IMG/VR virus record: IMGVR_UViG_3300028585_000047
Location: 1 to 37,742 of that record
Reading direction: 5' to 3' (one strand)
Source: a virus
Taxonomy: Duplodnaviria; Caudoviricetes
Length of the DNA stretch: 37,742 nt
In this document: in pieces, positions 21,065 to 28,565 of the stretch
Position numbering within the stretch: the stretch's first letter is position 1
Layout: every line of letters starts with the position of its first letter
Translations under genes and position numbers: made by a program
The notes under the pieces: generated by a model
Databases searched by the model: none
Seen by the model: only the letters and a program-made list of their open reading frames with translations
What the model was told of the DNA's origin: nothing

Positions 21065-21271
21065 ATGGATTACGCGCATTTGCTCTACGTCATCGAGGTT
21101 AGGAAGCTCGCACTGGGCCTCGCTCGAGGTGAAGCGCCAAAAGATGGAAGCGATGCAGAGCGTCAAATCCACATACGCGATAACTTCCGGAAATGCATCG
21201 CGACAGCGGTGGATGAGATTGAATTTGCCGCTCAAATAATCGACGAGATTAAAGCCAAAGATACGAAATAA
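21065..21271 (+). CDS. Moron: 68-aa hypothetical protein, antisense to the late operon
   Basis: Strong SD GGAGG; upstream TG-A-TATTGT extended -10; AT-rich; ends at a bidirectional terminator. Confidence 0.7.
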   Translation: MDYAHLLYVIEVRKLALGLARGEAPKDGSDAERQIHIRDNFRKCIATAVDEIEFAAQIIDEIKAKDTK

Positions 21272-21276
21272 AATGC

Positions 21277-21308
21277 AAAAAGCCCACTACCTTGCGGAGC
21301 GGGCTTTT
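21277..21308. terminator. Bidirectional terminator; tR'-equivalent of the late leader
   Basis: AAAAAGCCC...GGGCTTTT inverted repeat ~70-100 nt downstream of the late promoter. Confidence 0.75.
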
Positions 21309-21380
21309 CTACCGTTCACGCCGCGGGCTCCCTTTGGGAACCTGCCGCGTCATGATTGACGGAAATAAGTTGTTGGCAGG

Positions 21381-21409
21381 AATCTACCTGACTATTTTCC
21401 AGAAGTCAA
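21381..21409 (-). promoter_or_regulatory. Late promoter (lambda pR'-like)
   Basis: TTGACT-17 nt-TAGATT on the - strand, downstream of the Q-like gene and followed by a short hairpin leader and terminator. Confidence 0.75.
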
Positions 21410-22048
21410 TGGTTTAGCCTTGCGCTTTGCTGGTGCTGTCGCTTTGACTGCTGCTGCAGCTGCATCTTGAACTTCTTGGTCAGTCAAGAAGAATACGTCA
21501 TCCAAAGGGTGGAACTCGTCTACCACGTACTTCAATTCCTCATTGAACCCAGATGACAGTGCGGACAGATATACCATTTTCCCGGCGTGGGTCGCTTCTT
21601 CGATGAGCTGGGCGAAATCGCCATCGCCGCTGAATAACCAAACTGTTTCGGCGTGATCGCGGTAACAGGCTCGCATGATGTCGACGGCGATAGAGATATC
21701 ACAAATGCTCTCTTTTTTCGTCTTGTTAGCCCTCTTGCGAACGAAGGGCATAATCTGTCCTGTTACCCATTGAACACCAGCTTCTTCCGAACCTATCTCA
21801 CACTTCCAGGTCACCTCAGAAATTTTCTGACGTACACCCCGAACGAAATCATCATCTCCTACAACGCTGGTGTAGTAGCAGAGCCGCTTGAGATTCCAGT
21901 AATAGCCCTCGAAAACCTTATGATTCCAAATGAAACAATCCTTGATATGGATGTTGCCTGGTCGAGCGATTCGGCCCGCCTTTAACATTTCTTGATATCT
22001 GAAGACCAGATTCTCACCATCGACAAATATTATAGTTTTATCAAACAT
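21392..22048 (-). CDS. NYN/LabA-like PIN-domain ribonuclease (moron)
   Basis: IFVDGENL, CDISIAVD and LFSGDGDFAQLI acidic catalytic motifs; AT-rich insert. Confidence 0.85.
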   Translation of the reverse strand: MFDKTIIFVDGENLVFRYQEMLKAGRIARPGNIHIKDCFIWNHKVFEGYYWNLKRLCYYTSVVGDDDFVRGVRQKISEVTWKCEIGSEEAGVQWVTGQIMPFVRKRANKTKKESICDISIAVDIMRACYRDHAETVWLFSGDGDFAQLIEEATHAGKMVYLSALSSGFNEELKYVVDEFHPLDDVFFLTDQEVQDAAAAAVKATAPAKRKAKPLTSGK

Positions 22049-22100: not shown

Positions 22101-22622
22101 TTAGCTTCTGATTGAAACTACTGCGGCGTCGATCGCAGCCTGGGCAGATCGAAAACATCGGACAAACTCGGTGGCCGGGTGGCGCGGGATGGACAGTTTC
22201 CTGCAGACCACCTCGGGCGGGGCTTGGTCGATGTAGCACCACCACAGCAACAGGCGGTCGAAGGACTTGAGCTTGCGCATGCCAACCTCGATCAGCAGCG
22301 CGTCATCCTCATCGATCTTGCGCCGCTCTTCGCTTGCGCCGGTGCTGCCCAGCTCGGCCTTGCGCAGGCGTTCACAGATGGCGCCGGTCTGGCTGGCTGC
22401 GGCGGTTGGATAGCCGGCGGCCGTGGCCCAGCGCGCCCAGTTCTCGAGGCGAGAACCAATGTCGCGGCGCTCACGGTCTGGTTGACCTGGTTGCTGCTCT
22501 GCCGCGCGCGCATCGGCGTCCTGCCGGGTCACGTGCGCCACCTCGATCATGTCATCGTGGCGCCGCGCCGGCGCACCAGGTGCGCGCCAGGCACGGGTGA
22601 TTGTGGTGCGACGTTCGGTCAA
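22101..22622 (-). CDS. Late antiterminator Q-like protein
   Basis: IGSRLENWARW and LLWWCYI...VCRKLSI HTH; position after rusA; probable TTG start overlapping the rusA stop (alternative ATG at 22550). Confidence 0.7.
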   Translation of the reverse strand: MTERRTTITRAWRAPGAPARRHDDMIEVAHVTRQDADARAAEQQPGQPDRERRDIGSRLENWARWATAAGYPTAAASQTGAICERLRKAELGSTGASEERRKIDEDDALLIEVGMRKLKSFDRLLLWWCYIDQAPPEVVCRKLSIPRHPATEFVRCFRSAQAAIDAAVVSIRS

Positions 22623-23074
22623 GCTGCCTCCCGCTCCAGCAGGTCGGCCTGCATCTGCACCACCGGCATGGCCGTGATCGTCACCACGACGCGCGCCTGG
22701 CCATCCGGCTCCATGCGCTCGGCTGTGAGTCGGCGCACCCACTTGTCGTCTTCGATCGCCACGTCCTTGAGCGCGTCGAGCAGCACCTTGTTGGCGTTGT
22801 CCAGGTCGAGGCACTGGACGCCGTCGTCCCAGGCTGCGCCGAGCTTGCGCTGGCGCGCCTGCCAGTCGAGCGGGCGTCGCGGGTAGAGCTTGACGTCGAC
22901 GTGCACGCGGCCGGCCAGCGGTGCGCGGATGCCCTGGTCACGGCACAGCGCGGCGATATCGGCGCGGAACTGCTTCGCCTCCTTCGTCGGCACGATGCTG
23001 ATGTGCTTGCCGAGCTTCACCGGGCGCCAGTAGCGGTTCGCTGAGAGCGGGTAGGGCAGGGTCAGGGTGATCAT
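22619..23074 (-). CDS. rusA: RusA Holliday junction resolvase
   Basis: LPYPLSANRYWR and catalytic DLDNANKVLLDAL...IEDDKWV. Confidence 0.93.
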   Translation of the reverse strand: MITLTLPYPLSANRYWRPVKLGKHISIVPTKEAKQFRADIAALCRDQGIRAPLAGRVHVDVKLYPRRPLDWQARQRKLGAAWDDGVQCLDLDNANKVLLDALKDVAIEDDKWVRRLTAERMEPDGQARVVVTITAMPVVQMQADLLEREAA

Positions 23075-23131: not shown

Positions 23132-23950
23132 TTATTCGACGATCAGCCAATCCTCGGCCAGCGCGTCGCTGCAGCTCGGCGCCCAGGTGCTGACGGTGTC
23201 GTCGACGTTCTTGACCGCCAGGTAGGCGGTGTAGGGGACCAGGCCACCGTCGCCGAAGAACGACTTGGCGGCGCCGGTTTGGGCGGGATAGCTGTTGGCG
23301 GGCACCAGGTACACGAACAGGCCCTTGCCGTTCCAGCCGGCGCGCGCCACCTTGGCGCCGCATTTCAGCGCGGCCAGCGCATCGCCGAAGTCGCCGTTGG
23401 CGAAGCCGGGCAGTGGCTCCGGGGCGCCAACAGCCTGCTCAGCTGGCGACAGGTCCGGCAGTGGCGCCAGGCCAGCCGCGCTCGTGCCATCGCTGTAGCA
23501 CTTCGTCTCGATTGCCGACGCCGGCGCGCCCTCGATCGCGTCTTGGTACGCACGGGCTGCGGCCAGCACGTCGCGATGCCCGTTGACGCCAGGCGTGCGC
23601 AGGGCCACCTCCAGGCAGTGCACGCGAATCTGGGTCGGGTCGGGCTTGATCGCCTCGCAGGCCGCGGCGGTCTTCTTCGCCTGGCCGATCTGGTACGGCA
23701 TCCAGGTGGCGTAGCGTCCGGCGTCCGGCGCCTGCTCGCGTTCCTGGACGAGCTGCACGTACGGCATCTGGTGCGGCACGCCGTGAGCGTCGAACACGGT
23801 CAAGTGCACGATGGTCGTTGCGGACGAGTCGACGACGCTCGCGATGATGGCGGCGAGCGGCTGGCCAGCCTCCGGCGGGGCGAATCCAGCCGACTGCGAG
23901 TTCGACGGCGGGTAGAACCAGACGATGCGGCCGACGGTGGGTTTGATCAT
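23132..23950 (-). CDS. Multi-domain protein with a C-terminal DUF2829/Tad2 (Thoeris anti-defence 2-like) domain
   Basis: C-terminus FGDALAALKCGAKVARAGWNGKGLFVYL...WAPSCSDALAEDWLIV matches the Tad2 signature; the N-terminal ~185 aa are unknown domains. Confidence 0.85.
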   Translation of the reverse strand: MIKPTVGRIVWFYPPSNSQSAGFAPPEAGQPLAAIIASVVDSSATTIVHLTVFDAHGVPHQMPYVQLVQEREQAPDAGRYATWMPYQIGQAKKTAAACEAIKPDPTQIRVHCLEVALRTPGVNGHRDVLAAARAYQDAIEGAPASAIETKCYSDGTSAAGLAPLPDLSPAEQAVGAPEPLPGFANGDFGDALAALKCGAKVARAGWNGKGLFVYLVPANSYPAQTGAAKSFFGDGGLVPYTAYLAVKNVDDTVSTWAPSCSDALAEDWLIVE

Positions 23951-24011
23951 GTTGCATTTCTCCTAGGGTGCTGCGGTTGTGGCGCTCTCGCGCGCGAAGT
24001 GGTCTCGGTGC

Positions 24012-24239
24012 TCAGGCCTTTGCCATCTTCCGATCCCTGGGAAACTGATCCCGGCTGATCGCCCGCTCGGCCTGCCTGGTTGCCCATGTGTCTCGTTCGT
24101 TGAAGAGCACACACGGCCGCTCGACGTTGGTCGGCAACACGGGCTTCTCCCAGCCGCTGCAATGGCCTGGCTGCTCTTCGCCTTTCACCGCCGATGGCGT
24201 GAAGCGGTTGCACTGGCTGCAGGGCTGGTGGTCGTTCAT
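24012..24239 (-). CDS. Small Cys-rich putative Zn-binding protein
   Basis: CSQCNRF...GHCSGW...RPCVLF; ATGA overlap with the replication gene. Confidence 0.65.
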   Translation of the reverse strand: MNDHQPCSQCNRFTPSAVKGEEQPGHCSGWEKPVLPTNVERPCVLFNERDTWATRQAERAISRDQFPRDRKMAKA

Positions 24240-25096
24240 GCGGCTTCTTCCCTTCGCCTTGCGGCTTCGGTAGCGCTGATGCGGGCGTTGTAGTCGTCGT
24301 AGCTCTCGTCCAGGCCTTTGGGGTCAGTGCCTTGGGGCTTGCGCGGTGGCGTAGGCTGGGCAGCGCTACCAGCTGCTGCCGGCTTGGCTGCGCCCGTGGC
24401 TTTCAGCTCGGAAGCCTCTTTGGCCCAGCGCTCGAGGATGGCGATCACGTAGGCAGGGCCGATCGGCTCGTTCGGCTTCGAGCGCTTCGCCTGTTCACAC
24501 GCGGCCTTCACGGTCTCGGCGGTGACGCCCTGGTCGGCTATGGCCATCAGGCGTGGGTCAGCAGGGTTCGACATGACGCCGAAGCTGCGCATTGCCATGC
24601 TGAGGGCGCCAACAGGGGTCGGTTCAACGCCTTGGCCCGCGCTCAACTCCGGTTGAGTAGAGGCGCGGTGTGTAAGGTCTGGAGTCTGGAGTCTGGTGTC
24701 TGGTGTCTGGCTAAGGTTTTTTTCGGTTAGCGAGTCAAAACCCAATGGGTTTTCTTTCGGTTCATGCTGGGTATCTTTTTTCTTCGGCCGTCCGCCCTTT
24801 TTGCCATTGCTTCGGTTTGCATCGGCTTGTGCGCTTGCTGCCGTAATCTCTTCCTCGCAGCGGTTCTGCGTCCACGTGCCGTCGACCAGGGTGAAGAACT
24901 CATCGAGCACGTTGGCCAGGGCCTGTAGTTCGTCCTTCGACCTGGCGCTGATCAGGCGCGCTGCTTTGTCCTGGGGAATGCCGGCTTCGCGGGTGTAGTA
25001 CACGTCCATGAGGCGGCTGTAGATGCCGTGCTCGAGCAGTGACAGGTGGCCGGCCTTCTTGATGTAGTCGCCGATGTGACGCTTGTAGAAGTTCAT
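24236..25096 (-). CDS. Replication initiator, YdaU/DUF1376 family (286 aa)
   Basis: MNFYKRHIGDY...LSLLEHGIYSRLMDVYY; NGKKGGRP motif; internal DNA repeats. Confidence 0.85.
   Translation of the reverse strand: MNFYKRHIGDYIKKAGHLSLLEHGIYSRLMDVYYTREAGIPQDKAARLISARSKDELQALANVLDEFFTLVDGTWTQNRCEEEITAASAQADANRSNGKKGGRPKKKDTQHEPKENPLGFDSLTEKNLSQTPDTRLQTPDLTHRASTQPELSAGQGVEPTPVGALSMAMRSFGVMSNPADPRLMAIADQGVTAETVKAACEQAKRSKPNEPIGPAYVIAILERWAKEASELKATGAAKPAAAGSAAQPTPPRKPQGTDPKGLDESYDDYNARISATEAARRREEAA
24677..24711. repeat. 5 x 7-bp tandem repeat GTCTGG(A/T/C) within the initiator gene
   Basis: gtctgga gtctgga gtctggt gtctggt gtctggc. Confidence 0.9.
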
Positions 25097-25968
25097 GGCA
25101 TCACCTGGGCGAACAGGCCAGTTCGATCGAGCGCGCGCGACGCGGCCGGATTCAGCCACAGACATTCGGTGCGCATTGCGGTACCGCGTGCTGCCGAGAT
25201 TCGCGCCTCGGTAGTGGCCATGGCCCAGCCCTGCAGCGCGCCCAGGTACATCGCGCTCGAGTAGCCGCTCAGGACAACCATGCCTTTCACGGTCAGCAGC
25301 TTCTCCAGCAGCTGGACGTGGTCGGCATCCTTCATCTCGCAGTCGTAATAGCGGCCATGGCGCGCGCCGACGTTGCGGGTGTCCATGACGTAGGGTGGGT
25401 CGACATAGAACAGCGTGTCCTCGGCGTCATGCTGCTCGATGATGGTCAGAGCAGGGCGGTTCTCGATCATCACACCGGAAAGGCGATCGCACACTCGAGC
25501 GAGCGATGCGGGGAAGCGTGCCCACAGCTGTTGTGCAGTGCCATGCTTGCGGCGCGTGTCGATGCGGAATCCAGTGGTGCCCTTGGTGGCGCCGGCGGAA
25601 CCGAAACCCATCTCGGCACGCACCAGGGTGCGGCGCGCACGCTCGATCGGGTCGTTGGTGTGTTCGTAGGCGGCGTCGAACTCGTCCCGGGCGTACGGGG
25701 TGAGAAGCAGCATGTCGATGAGGCGCGCGCAGGCATCCGGATCTCGAAGCACGCGGAAAACGTTCACGATATCGCCGTCGAGGTCGTTGTAGACCTCGGC
25801 GTAGGCGCGGTCCTTCTGCACCAGGACGCCGGCAGCGCCGCCGAATGGCTCGACGTAACAGCGGTGTGGTGGGAAATGGCGGATGACCCAAGGCGCTAGG
25901 CGGAACTTGCCGCCGTGGTAGCGCAGCACCGGGCGCGCCGGCGCTTCATGTGCGATGGTGGTCGTCAT
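25093..25968 (-). CDS. DNA adenine methyltransferase (D12/Dam-like, orphan)
   Basis: LRYHGGK; YVEPFGGAAGV (motif I); EVYNDLD; FYVDPPY (motif IV). Confidence 0.93.
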   Translation of the reverse strand: MTTTIAHEAPARPVLRYHGGKFRLAPWVIRHFPPHRCYVEPFGGAAGVLVQKDRAYAEVYNDLDGDIVNVFRVLRDPDACARLIDMLLLTPYARDEFDAAYEHTNDPIERARRTLVRAEMGFGSAGATKGTTGFRIDTRRKHGTAQQLWARFPASLARVCDRLSGVMIENRPALTIIEQHDAEDTLFYVDPPYVMDTRNVGARHGRYYDCEMKDADHVQLLEKLLTVKGMVVLSGYSSAMYLGALQGWAMATTEARISAARGTAMRTECLWLNPAASRALDRTGLFAQVMP

Positions 25969-26901: not shown

Positions 26902-27660
26902 ATGAAAAGACGCGAGCTGACAACAGAAGAGAGGGCAGAGGCCGAGCGCCTGGCTGCGGCGTGGTCGAGGTACCGCGCAGAGCACAAAGGCGCTACCCAG
27001 GCATGGCTAGCGGCCGAATCGGGCTTGGGGACGCAAGGCGCAGTTAGTCAATACCTGCGCGGCGTGATCCCGCTGAACGTGGAGGCACTGGCCGCGATGT
27101 GCCGCGTGATGCAGATGGATCCAGCCACAATCAGTCCACGGCTTATGGAGAAGGTGGTGTCGCCCGAGCAGCTGGCCGCTGCGCAGGAGGTCTTCAAGAA
27201 CATGCGGGTTCGCCTGGAAGTGGTAGACGAGGATGACGATTACCACGTGCATATTCCGAAAGTGAAAATCAGACTGTCCGCAGGCATCAGCGGTTTCGAG
27301 CTCGAACCGGAGAGGTTTGACGGAAGCTTCTATACAGTGCCGGGCTCGTGGATCGAGCGTCATGGGTATGACCGAAGCAAGCTTATTGCAGTGCTTGTTC
27401 GCGGCGAAAGTATGGAGACCACTCTTTACGAGAATGACCTGGTGGTAATCAATACGGCGGATCGAAAGAAGGTGGATGGCGCAGTGTTCGCGTTTAACTA
27501 CGAGGGCGAGCCTGTCATTAAGCGCCTATCGCGGGATGCTGGGCATTGGTGGCTAACTTCCGACAATCGTGATCAGCGAAGATTTCATCGAAAAATATGT
27601 GAAGATAATAATTGCATGATCATCGGCAGGGTGGTTAAGAGGGAAAGTGATAGGCTTTGA
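26902..27660 (+). CDS. cI: CI-like repressor with S24 autopeptidase domain
   Basis: N-terminal HTH (TQGAVSQYLRG); LSAG cleavage site; catalytic GESM and VIKRL. Confidence 0.95.
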   Translation: MKRRELTTEERAEAERLAAAWSRYRAEHKGATQAWLAAESGLGTQGAVSQYLRGVIPLNVEALAAMCRVMQMDPATISPRLMEKVVSPEQLAAAQEVFKNMRVRLEVVDEDDDYHVHIPKVKIRLSAGISGFELEPERFDGSFYTVPGSWIERHGYDRSKLIAVLVRGESMETTLYENDLVVINTADRKKVDGAVFAFNYEGEPVIKRLSRDAGHWWLTSDNRDQRRFHRKICEDNNCMIIGRVVKRESDRL

Positions 27661-27938
27661 TGCATTACACGGTAGCACGACTGCGCGATGTGCGCATGGT
27701 GGCGGTATTGGTAGAAAAAGGATGCTTGGACGGCCCGCGCGCCGATAGCTTCATAGTCGAAATCCAGCAGCGGTTTGCACTGCCGGCCATGCTAATAGCG
27801 CGGGATGAGGAAGCGATTCCAGGCATGAGGGCGCGCGCACAGTTCGATGCTGTGCCGTACCTGTTTTCGCTGTTGTCTATCGAGGATGTGGAGTGGCAGG
27901 AGCTGGGCCCGGCGCCGGAGCCTGATTTGCCTTTTTAA
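27657..27938 (+). CDS. Hypothetical protein co-transcribed with cI
   Basis: Overlaps the cI stop; 93 aa. Confidence 0.6.
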   Translation: MMHYTVARLRDVRMVAVLVEKGCLDGPRADSFIVEIQQRFALPAMLIARDEEAIPGMRARAQFDAVPYLFSLLSIEDVEWQELGPAPEPDLPF

Positions 27939-27946
27939 GGATTGCG

Positions 27947-28174
27947 ATGAGCTACACCCATTTCTTTATATGTCTTGGCGTTTTGTTGGGATGCTGCGTT
28001 ATCCGACAGAGAACCACTTGGTTACTCGTATGCCTTGCGACTTGGGTGGCGCTTATTGCTGGAACATTCTATAGCATCTTCACTTTAAATATTCTCGGAT
28101 TTCTTGGGTGTCTCATTGGCATGATTGTGCCGCATGTGTTTTACGAGTTCGTCCTCAAGAAATCAGTCTTTTAA
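27947..28174 (+). CDS. Small multi-TM membrane protein in the immunity region
   Basis: 75 aa, almost entirely hydrophobic (about 3 TM); AT-rich; SD AAGGA. Confidence 0.65.
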   Translation: MSYTHFFICLGVLLGCCVIRQRTTWLLVCLATWVALIAGTFYSIFTLNILGFLGCLIGMIVPHVFYEFVLKKSVF

Positions 28175-28214
28175 AAGCGAAACGGCACGCTCAAATGCCG
28201 AATAAGAGGGATTA

Positions 28215-28565
28215 ATGAAGAACGTTTTACTTGTTGCTGCGTTGGCAGTGATGCTGGCCGCATGCTCATCGACCGGGCCAGTCCCGATCAGCAAAGACAC
28301 CTATATGATTTCCAAGCAGAGCGCAGGCGGAATGTTCGTCCAGCCGGCCTCGATTCGCGCGGACATTATCCGTGAGGGTGCCGCGTTCTGCACGAAGTCT
28401 GGCAAGGAGTTCCAGATGGATTCTTTCCGCGACACAGCCGCATTCCCTGGGCGCCTGCCTGCATCCGAGATCACGTTCCTATGCCTGGATGCGAACGATC
28501 CAGAGCTGCGCCGGCTGAAGCTGAGGAAGGATGCTGACACGGTGATCGAGACGCGTCAGCGCTAA
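28215..28565 (+). CDS. Lipoprotein in the immunity region
   Basis: MKNVLLVAALAVMLAA^C lipobox; SD GAGG; followed by a terminator. Confidence 0.8.
   Translation: MKNVLLVAALAVMLAACSSTGPVPISKDTYMISKQSAGGMFVQPASIRADIIREGAAFCTKSGKEFQMDSFRDTAAFPGRLPASEITFLCLDANDPELRRLKLRKDADTVIETRQR

Follow-up and report, generated by a model that had tools for sequence, protein, structure and literature searches.

The closest described relative of the Tad2 domain considered here is ModTad2 (or MoTad2), a prophage-borne protein of Myroides odoratus that shares the PF11195 fold (PDB 9EIB, 8V3E) and that, as far as the accessible parts of its sources tell, has served as bait for His-ADPR (10.1101/2024.01.03.573942, 10.1101/2025.08.24.671296). 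ModTad2 is a stand-alone protein of 88 aa, whereas in the present phage Tad2 makes up the C-terminal 86 aa of a fusion protein of 272 aa. Sponge fusions have themselves been published, including Acb4-Tad2 of Pasteurella phage Pm86 and Tad2-Sequestin (10.1101/2025.07.12.664507) as well as the Acb4-Sequestin fusion gp59 (10.64898/2026.06.04.730250), and in the available portions of these sources they likewise combine small anti-signalling domains, several to a chain. Sequestin was found through sponge fusions, in a search which, by the accessible part of that work, covered Pfam families only (10.1101/2025.07.12.664507) and so could not list the N-terminal domain of the present protein (hereafter domain A), for which there is no Pfam model. 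A 2026 review (PMC13712596) gives seven characterised sponge families, and in its accessible part the fold class of domain A is not listed for any of them. The original prediction held that domains fused to a sponge are good candidates for additional inhibitors; the use of sponge fusions to find new sponges is already in the literature. We regard the 272-aa protein as new in the sense of a variant of the published sponge fusions, and domain A as a candidate, unproven, for a new sponge family.

The window, that is, the whole stretch of DNA analysed, is the entire virus record IMGVR_UViG_3300028585_000047 (37,742 bases, 97% complete). Its gene set includes an integrase, RecT, a CI/Cro switch, a DUF1376 replication protein, RusA, a Q-like antiterminator, a terminase, and a portal and capsid of SU10 type, a gene set that marks the phage as temperate. 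Since a Massilia oculi contig is the closest named genome match for domain A, the host is likely to belong to the Burkholderiales, as judged from sequence. The fusion gene (P0001; 23132..23950, minus strand) belongs to the cro-side operon, where the replication gene and RusA flank it. The DUF1376 replication protein, together with an ORF of 75 aa, is encoded upstream of it in this operon (24012..25165, minus strand), and the RusA resolvase gene (22619..23074, minus strand) forms the downstream edge of a slot in which sponge modules are shuffled in related phages. Delayed-early expression of the fusion gene fits its position in this cro-replication-RusA-Q operon, and transcription would then come from the cro-side early operon. 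A promoter and terminator scan gave one promoter-like site upstream of cro (26860-26833), a weak signal with 3 sites against 1.0 expected. The same operon also holds, between cro and the replication gene, a D12-class adenine methyltransferase gene (25093-25968), which is likely an anti-restriction gene.

The 272-aa ORF proves to be real, with all four of the motifs originally quoted for it found in the translation, and an RBS-like AGGAG (23960..23964, minus strand) stands 9 nt upstream of the ATG; relatives begin at the same MIKPT/MITPT motif. Its four parts, all read from the minus strand, are domain A (aa 1-93; 23672..23950), an unnamed Tudor/SH3-like beta-barrel with a C-terminal helix; module B (aa 104-142; 23525..23641), a two-helix hairpin without a family that is mobile among sponge fusions; motif C (aa 148-169; 23444..23509), a mobile 22-aa peptide conserved at the protein level; and the ModTad2-like Tad2 domain (PF11195; aa 187-272; 23135..23392). 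AlphaFold2, run with a 57-sequence alignment, describes the protein as units that fold separately and are joined by flexible links (pTM 0.49), namely the barrel at 1-93, two helices at 105-117 and 125-139 (pLDDT about 91) and the Tad2 fold, with a low-confidence hairpin at 149-159 (pLDDT about 55). This four-part anatomy (A-B-C-D) recurs in P0009 and, by profile HMMs, in P0007/L256 and L261, and the modules are combined in other ways among 120 listed homologues. Where the original prediction had counted two or three extra domains beside Tad2, the N-terminal one stands as a full domain, whereas the helix pair and the linker motif turn out to be minor.

The C-terminal domain is indeed Tad2. PF11195 matches aa 187-271 with 77.2 bits (cut-off 25, E 1.4e-21), and in the fold check the best Foldseek match is 9eib (E 4.1e-11, TM by target 0.80), with Tad2 entries in every row listed at E <0.001. 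By both sequence and fold, ModTad2 is the best solved relative (E 2.5e-26; 95 bits vs. 54 for SPO1 Tad2), and 49 of 86 residues are identical as counted from the alignment (57%). Ten ligand- or water-coordinating residues are named for SPO1 Tad2 in the accessible part of its description (10.1101/2023.05.01.538930), of which six are identical here (SPO1 W25, N26, D67, W73, S76 and D79, corresponding to W206, N207, D250, W256, S259 and D262) and four differ (T78S, I63V, T65N and H71S). It seems very probable that this domain is an active sponge, and it would be expected to form a tetramer.

Regarding its ligand, the nearest tested Tad2 homologues block type II Thoeris in the accessible portions of the reports. 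One of them, Tad2_68, is scored y/y/y under type II Thoeris, like MoTad2, with mixed entries in the type I cells, in the available part of supplement 3 of PMC12393519; it shares the loop pattern of the present domain and is about half identical to it by eye. His-ADPR is the likeliest ligand given that the domain is closest to ModTad2 and given the type II Thoeris result for Tad2_68, and by sequence comparison this signal is, with somewhat better than even prospects, among those that the domain binds; cUMP/cCMP would perhaps be bound as well.

Domain A is a different matter, as its only family match is phrog_2293, where no function is assigned. Among the 88 members of its alignment there are no real matches in Pfam, and none matches the Acb4, Sequestin, RyR, Tad1 or Tad2 families there; NCBIfam and PADLOC also gave no match. 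The domain A profile returned no PDB sequence at E<=10, though Tad1 and Tad2 chains are in the library, and Foldseek returned nothing at E<=0.001 in PDB or BFVD. The family itself is nevertheless very large, with 5,407 clusters at 50% identity reached by the profile at E<=0.001. Of 160 candidates from a search limited to proteins of 51-165 aa, 156 are relatives, and among the 150 best profile matches (ranked on domain A alone) 47 are 110 aa or shorter and consist of domain A by itself. Its neighbours in the ESM Atlas are 57-80% viral.

Two motifs are conserved in domain A, IxPTxGR and WMPYQxGQA, and residues I2, P4, G7, R8, A34, W83, M84, P85, Q87, Q90 and A91 are conserved at 96-98% in 399 aligned domains, figures that are inflated because the searches select for conserved motifs. 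The only conserved basic residues are R8 (98%) and K93 (81%), and stand-alone domain A is acidic (median pI 5.8, with 2 of 127 above pI 8); sponge pockets are described as positively charged in the accessible parts of the literature. Neither His, Cys or Glu residues nor a metal-binding set are conserved in the domain, where D54, at 79%, is the best candidate among acidic residues, and the Arg-Trp-His active site of Acb5 (R10, W38 and H61) has no counterpart, with no His above 38% across the 399 aligned domains.

The structural model of domain A (pLDDT 90.5) is a small barrel plus a helix. VIA-align detects a generic resemblance to Tudor/PWWP/KOW barrels (best Z 6.4, rmsd 2.4, 62 aligned), and the 50 rows shown contain no sponge, Sm/Hfq or MazF entry and none with Z>=8, a result that excludes nothing. 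Domain A shares the same general barrel with 4iup, 6kco, 6hq9 and NusG KOW at 8-18% identity, a likeness too generic to imply a function. Peptides or nucleic acids are the usual ligands of Tudor/SH3-like barrels.

Literature searches found no paper on domain A, although subscription papers or bioRxiv supplements may hold a description. Traces of it exist in published tables. In the accessible data of 10.1101/2025.07.12.664507, 17 rows of the homologue table are domain A-Sequestin fusions, whereas none of seven domain A motifs (WMPYQ, WMPFQ, PTVGR, PTIGR, GRIVW, GRVVW and YQKGQA) occurs in the 124-gene screen table. By motif search only, they are also absent from the Lockin homologue table as available, and they were not found in the accessible part of the Acb5 homologue table, where the Acb5A/B sequences look unlike domain A. 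One divergent sequence with domain A motifs, recognised by motif only, accounts for seven rows of the published Acb2 homologue table.

The partners of domain A bear on its role. Among the 150 best matches, 14 carry a Pfam domain (6 Acb4, PF13876; 4 Sequestin, PF21825; 3 Tad2; 1 RyR) and 136 have no Pfam partner; in addition, P0307 joins domain A to Tad1 (PDB search, E 2.8e-14). In phages, RyR domains either degrade cADPR signals or bind them, according to the accessible parts of the reports. We then consider 108 distinct loci (123 fetched, the best 80 of 477 viral ones plus 43 genomic ones, less 15 duplicates), in a sample that, like the others for this domain, leans towards relatives of the present Burkholderiales-like phage. 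At 28 of these loci domain A is fused to Acb4 (19), Sequestin (7) or Tad2 (4), with two carrying two of them, and the one match to any other Pfam partner lies below its cut-off. Of the 80 loci where domain A is unfused, 16 have a gene for Acb4, Tad2, Tad1 or RyR no more than about 4 kb away, 13 of these 16 being confirmed by Pfam. A 73-member cluster in the ESM Atlas also joins the domain A fold to PF13876, and in nearly all fusions domain A is N-terminal to its partner.

In a quick tree of domain A (83 fused and 90 of 313 unfused rows, 108 columns, many open forks, partner labels from local profiles) the partners are interleaved, and the starred 12-row clade that holds P0001 includes Tad2, Acb4, Sequestin and no known partner. 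On starred branches alone the label changes at least five times for Tad2, at least five times for Acb4 and at least three times for Sequestin, which means that fusion partners have been swapped repeatedly. As a family, domain A is independent, accessory and phage-associated, and it has been fused again and again to Tad2, Acb4, Sequestin, Tad1 and RyR. Its stand-alone relatives and its fusions to Tad/Acb-type families support the modular anatomy and the N-terminal domain as an inhibitor candidate, as first proposed, and from sequence and model domain A is a likely candidate for a new blocker of bacterial immune signalling.

The region directly upstream of RusA is a slot in which relatives of this phage shuffle sponge modules. 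Across 75 loci picked on RusA alone, modules are present there in 22 and a Pfam sponge domain in 18, all among the closest RusA relatives and some of them near-identical. Among the architectures are A-Tad2, A-Acb4, A-Sequestin and A alone, as well as Acb4-Tad2 and B-C-Acb4-Sequestin; Acb4-Tad2, Acb4-Sequestin and other combinations share this slot in relatives. Domain A occupies it at 12 loci, fused to a Pfam sponge domain at 9 of the 12. Of 31 records without domain A in the slot, it is found elsewhere in 2, and in none of the 21 that are near-complete, so the domain is accessory and dispensable. Two other unnamed N-terminal modules, provisionally YGTK and FRKKP, are also present in the slot on Tad2 or Sequestin (L229:1716-2213, L245:1128-1682, L260:2083-2430, L232:1642-2295 and L235:1711-2247), and by the same fusion logic they may be considered further anti-signalling candidates.

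It is also important to consider how domain A might assemble. Four modelled copies score 0.71, against 0.00 for the best of three controls. Among proteins solved as pairs of one chain, 20 of 30 attain the mark set for this score, against 1 of 23 solved as single chains, counts that are only a rough guide here, where our own alignment and four copies were used. Contacts agree between the oligomer runs at 97% or better, with partner pLDDT of at least 79. The modelled face formed by residues 5-7, 35-41, 49-51, 61 and 63 contacts a different face (9, 11, 24-33, 53-58 and 84-85), which corresponds to a head-to-tail arrangement, and domain A is thus predicted to self-assemble head-to-tail as a closed ring or an open arc. 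Signature-motif residues 5-7 and 84-85 lie at the modelled seam, R8, W83, Y86, Q87 and Q90 are not named in the interface, and the predicted interface shows no enrichment of conserved positions (9/20 vs. 23/73, p 0.29). In its head-to-tail model domain A is like Lockin, a small, beta-rich phage protein described in the accessible part of 10.1101/2025.07.12.664507 as a head-to-tail oligomer with pockets between neighbours; Lockin differs in its sequence motifs, in being a hexamer and in having several conserved pocket lysines.

The explanation that we prefer is a two-headed signal blocker, in which Tad2 would take up His-ADPR and domain A would act as a second sponge, and we consider its prospects evenly balanced. 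That domain A is a sponge is a tentative assignment, falling a little short of an even chance. Its ligand would most plausibly be bound via the conserved R8, W83, Y86, Q87 and Q90 beside the subunit seam. In its widest form, which we also hold tentatively and at just under even prospects, domain A founds a very large sponge family of ring-forming Tudor/SH3-like barrels that trap an immune nucleotide, and the slot is a mix-and-match anti-signalling cassette. The trapped nucleotide would then possibly be one beyond the known sponges and defence systems, and the slot would hold several more unnamed anti-signalling domains. Some caution is needed with the fusion evidence. Bes1, which adjoins the published Acb4-Sequestin fusion, blocks a signalling defence without binding signals in the accessible account, so proximity or fusion to sponges does not prove sponge function.

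The alternative that survives best is that domain A binds no nucleotide signal and is an oligomerisation or adaptor module, which clusters, stabilises or localises the sponges fused to it or else attaches to a phage structure or to a defence protein of the host. The Tudor/SH3-like fold, the predicted head-to-tail assembly (0.71 vs. 0.00), the acidic character of stand-alone domain A and its N-terminal place in nearly all fusions all agree with such a role, as does the proximity of 30 of the 108 loci to terminase, portal or capsid genes (the largest same-strand ORF is annotated in 55 loci, with a packaging or head function in these 30 and a replication or recombination function in 13). We consider it unlikely nonetheless, since a pure scaffold does not explain why domain A stands bare in 47 of the 150 best matches, Tad2 and Acb4 tetramerise on their own, and the invariant polar residues R8, Q87 and Q90 are not named in the modelled interface. 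Motif C as a possible peptide ligand of such an adaptor is also unsupported, the two being present together in only 3 of 26 records.

Domain A could alternatively be another type of anti-signalling protein, either a signal-cleaving enzyme of the kind of Acb5 or RyDEP, or an inhibitor that acts directly on a defence protein, in the manner of Tad3-Tad8 or Bes1/Bes2. This draws on the same fusion and neighbourhood evidence as the sponge reading; moreover, a domain A-RyR fusion exists, the RyR family comprising both enzymes and sponges, and the enzyme Acb5 also came from a screen for sponges. The lack of any conserved His, Cys, Glu or metal-binding set (D54 reaching 79%) and of any solved structure that matches in sequence at E<=10 make this reading rather improbable. 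A role unrelated to defence, such as a head-assembly or replication accessory whose fusions are recombination by-products in a variable slot, would suit the frequent adjacency to portal or terminase genes and the majority of members without a known partner, but it is very improbable as the recognisable partners are anti-signalling in 14 of 14 cases (28 of 29 Pfam-hit ORFs in the loci) and never structural, domain A also occurs in replication regions (13/108 loci), and it is dispensable, as the 21 near-complete records without it show. As a core head protein in particular, domain A is disfavoured by its variable gene neighbourhoods and by the same absence from 21 of 21 records.

Returning to the sponge reading, its consequences would be considerable. 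Should domain A be a sponge, a family of 5,407 clusters would join those characterised, and the domain could be used as bait for a signal not yet described, as ModTad2 was for His-ADPR. The RusA slot in turn points to further unnamed candidate modules.

Taken by itself, neither B nor C resembles an inhibitor, and both would be passengers or spacers carried along with the module shuffling. Hairpin B also occurs without domain A. As a stand-alone protein it gave no relative of 25-81 aa in a word search of low sensitivity, Atlas scores of 0.81-0.82 that lie under the bar, and one locus in a pattern scan. For motif C, 98 viral loci match the first half and 26 of them also the second half, which is outside the search pattern; at these 26 loci (L127-L216) the motif recurs with sharp edges in unrelated phage proteins, 5 of the 26 ORFs having a sponge domain and 21 having no Pfam match, many of them low-complexity. 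Motif C is thus fused to sponges yet found mostly in unrelated proteins, so that fusion to a sponge is no proof of function. A mobile DNA repeat was considered and rejected, as third codon positions vary (0.57 vs. 0.86, the latter value being inflated by the search pattern), which places the conservation at the protein level, and there is no DNA hairpin signal either (mean z -0.01). One further motif C protein (L178:942-1442, minus strand) consists of a helical N-terminal unit, motif C and Sequestin, with Pfam giving Sequestin only; its N-terminal unit presumably resembles an Acb2-type hairpin.

Several other observations were made at the loci of domain A. In place of Tad2, domain A is fused in some proteins to unnamed C-terminal modules, provisionally KAAD, MKFR, VKQM, WHCN and HASAV, whose bearers (L231:1053-1781, L257:1799-2437, P0044, P0013, P0255 and P0274) have no Pfam match there; PDB searches of the fusion partners in P0039, P0044 and P0092 gave nothing meaningful. 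The Tad1 part of P0307 is matched better by PDB 8y6v_I (gp184), which we take to be a jumbo-phage capsid-associated protein, than by Tad1 entries. At several podovirus-like loci, including Pseudomonas phage PA8, genes with a RyR domain are found at a distance of 2-4 kb from those of domain A (L001:7980-8261, L044, L055, L067, L101, L107 and L111). In L018, L050 and L069, domain A genes have genes for RtcB or an RNA ligase close by, and phages may employ these to counter defences that cut RNA.

Two other regions of the present genome also deserve mention. A low-GC island (21065-22048; 48% vs. about 65%) that is flanked by the Q-like gene and the small terminase holds an NYN-domain gene (21392-22048, minus strand; PF01936, with a weak PADLOC NYN match) and, on the opposite strand, a 68-aa ORF without a family, and is possibly a phage-borne defence or toxin module. 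Downstream of cI, at 27657-28565, are three small ORFs without any family in DNA of 51-53% GC, and the product of one of them (27947-28174) appears to be membrane-bound.
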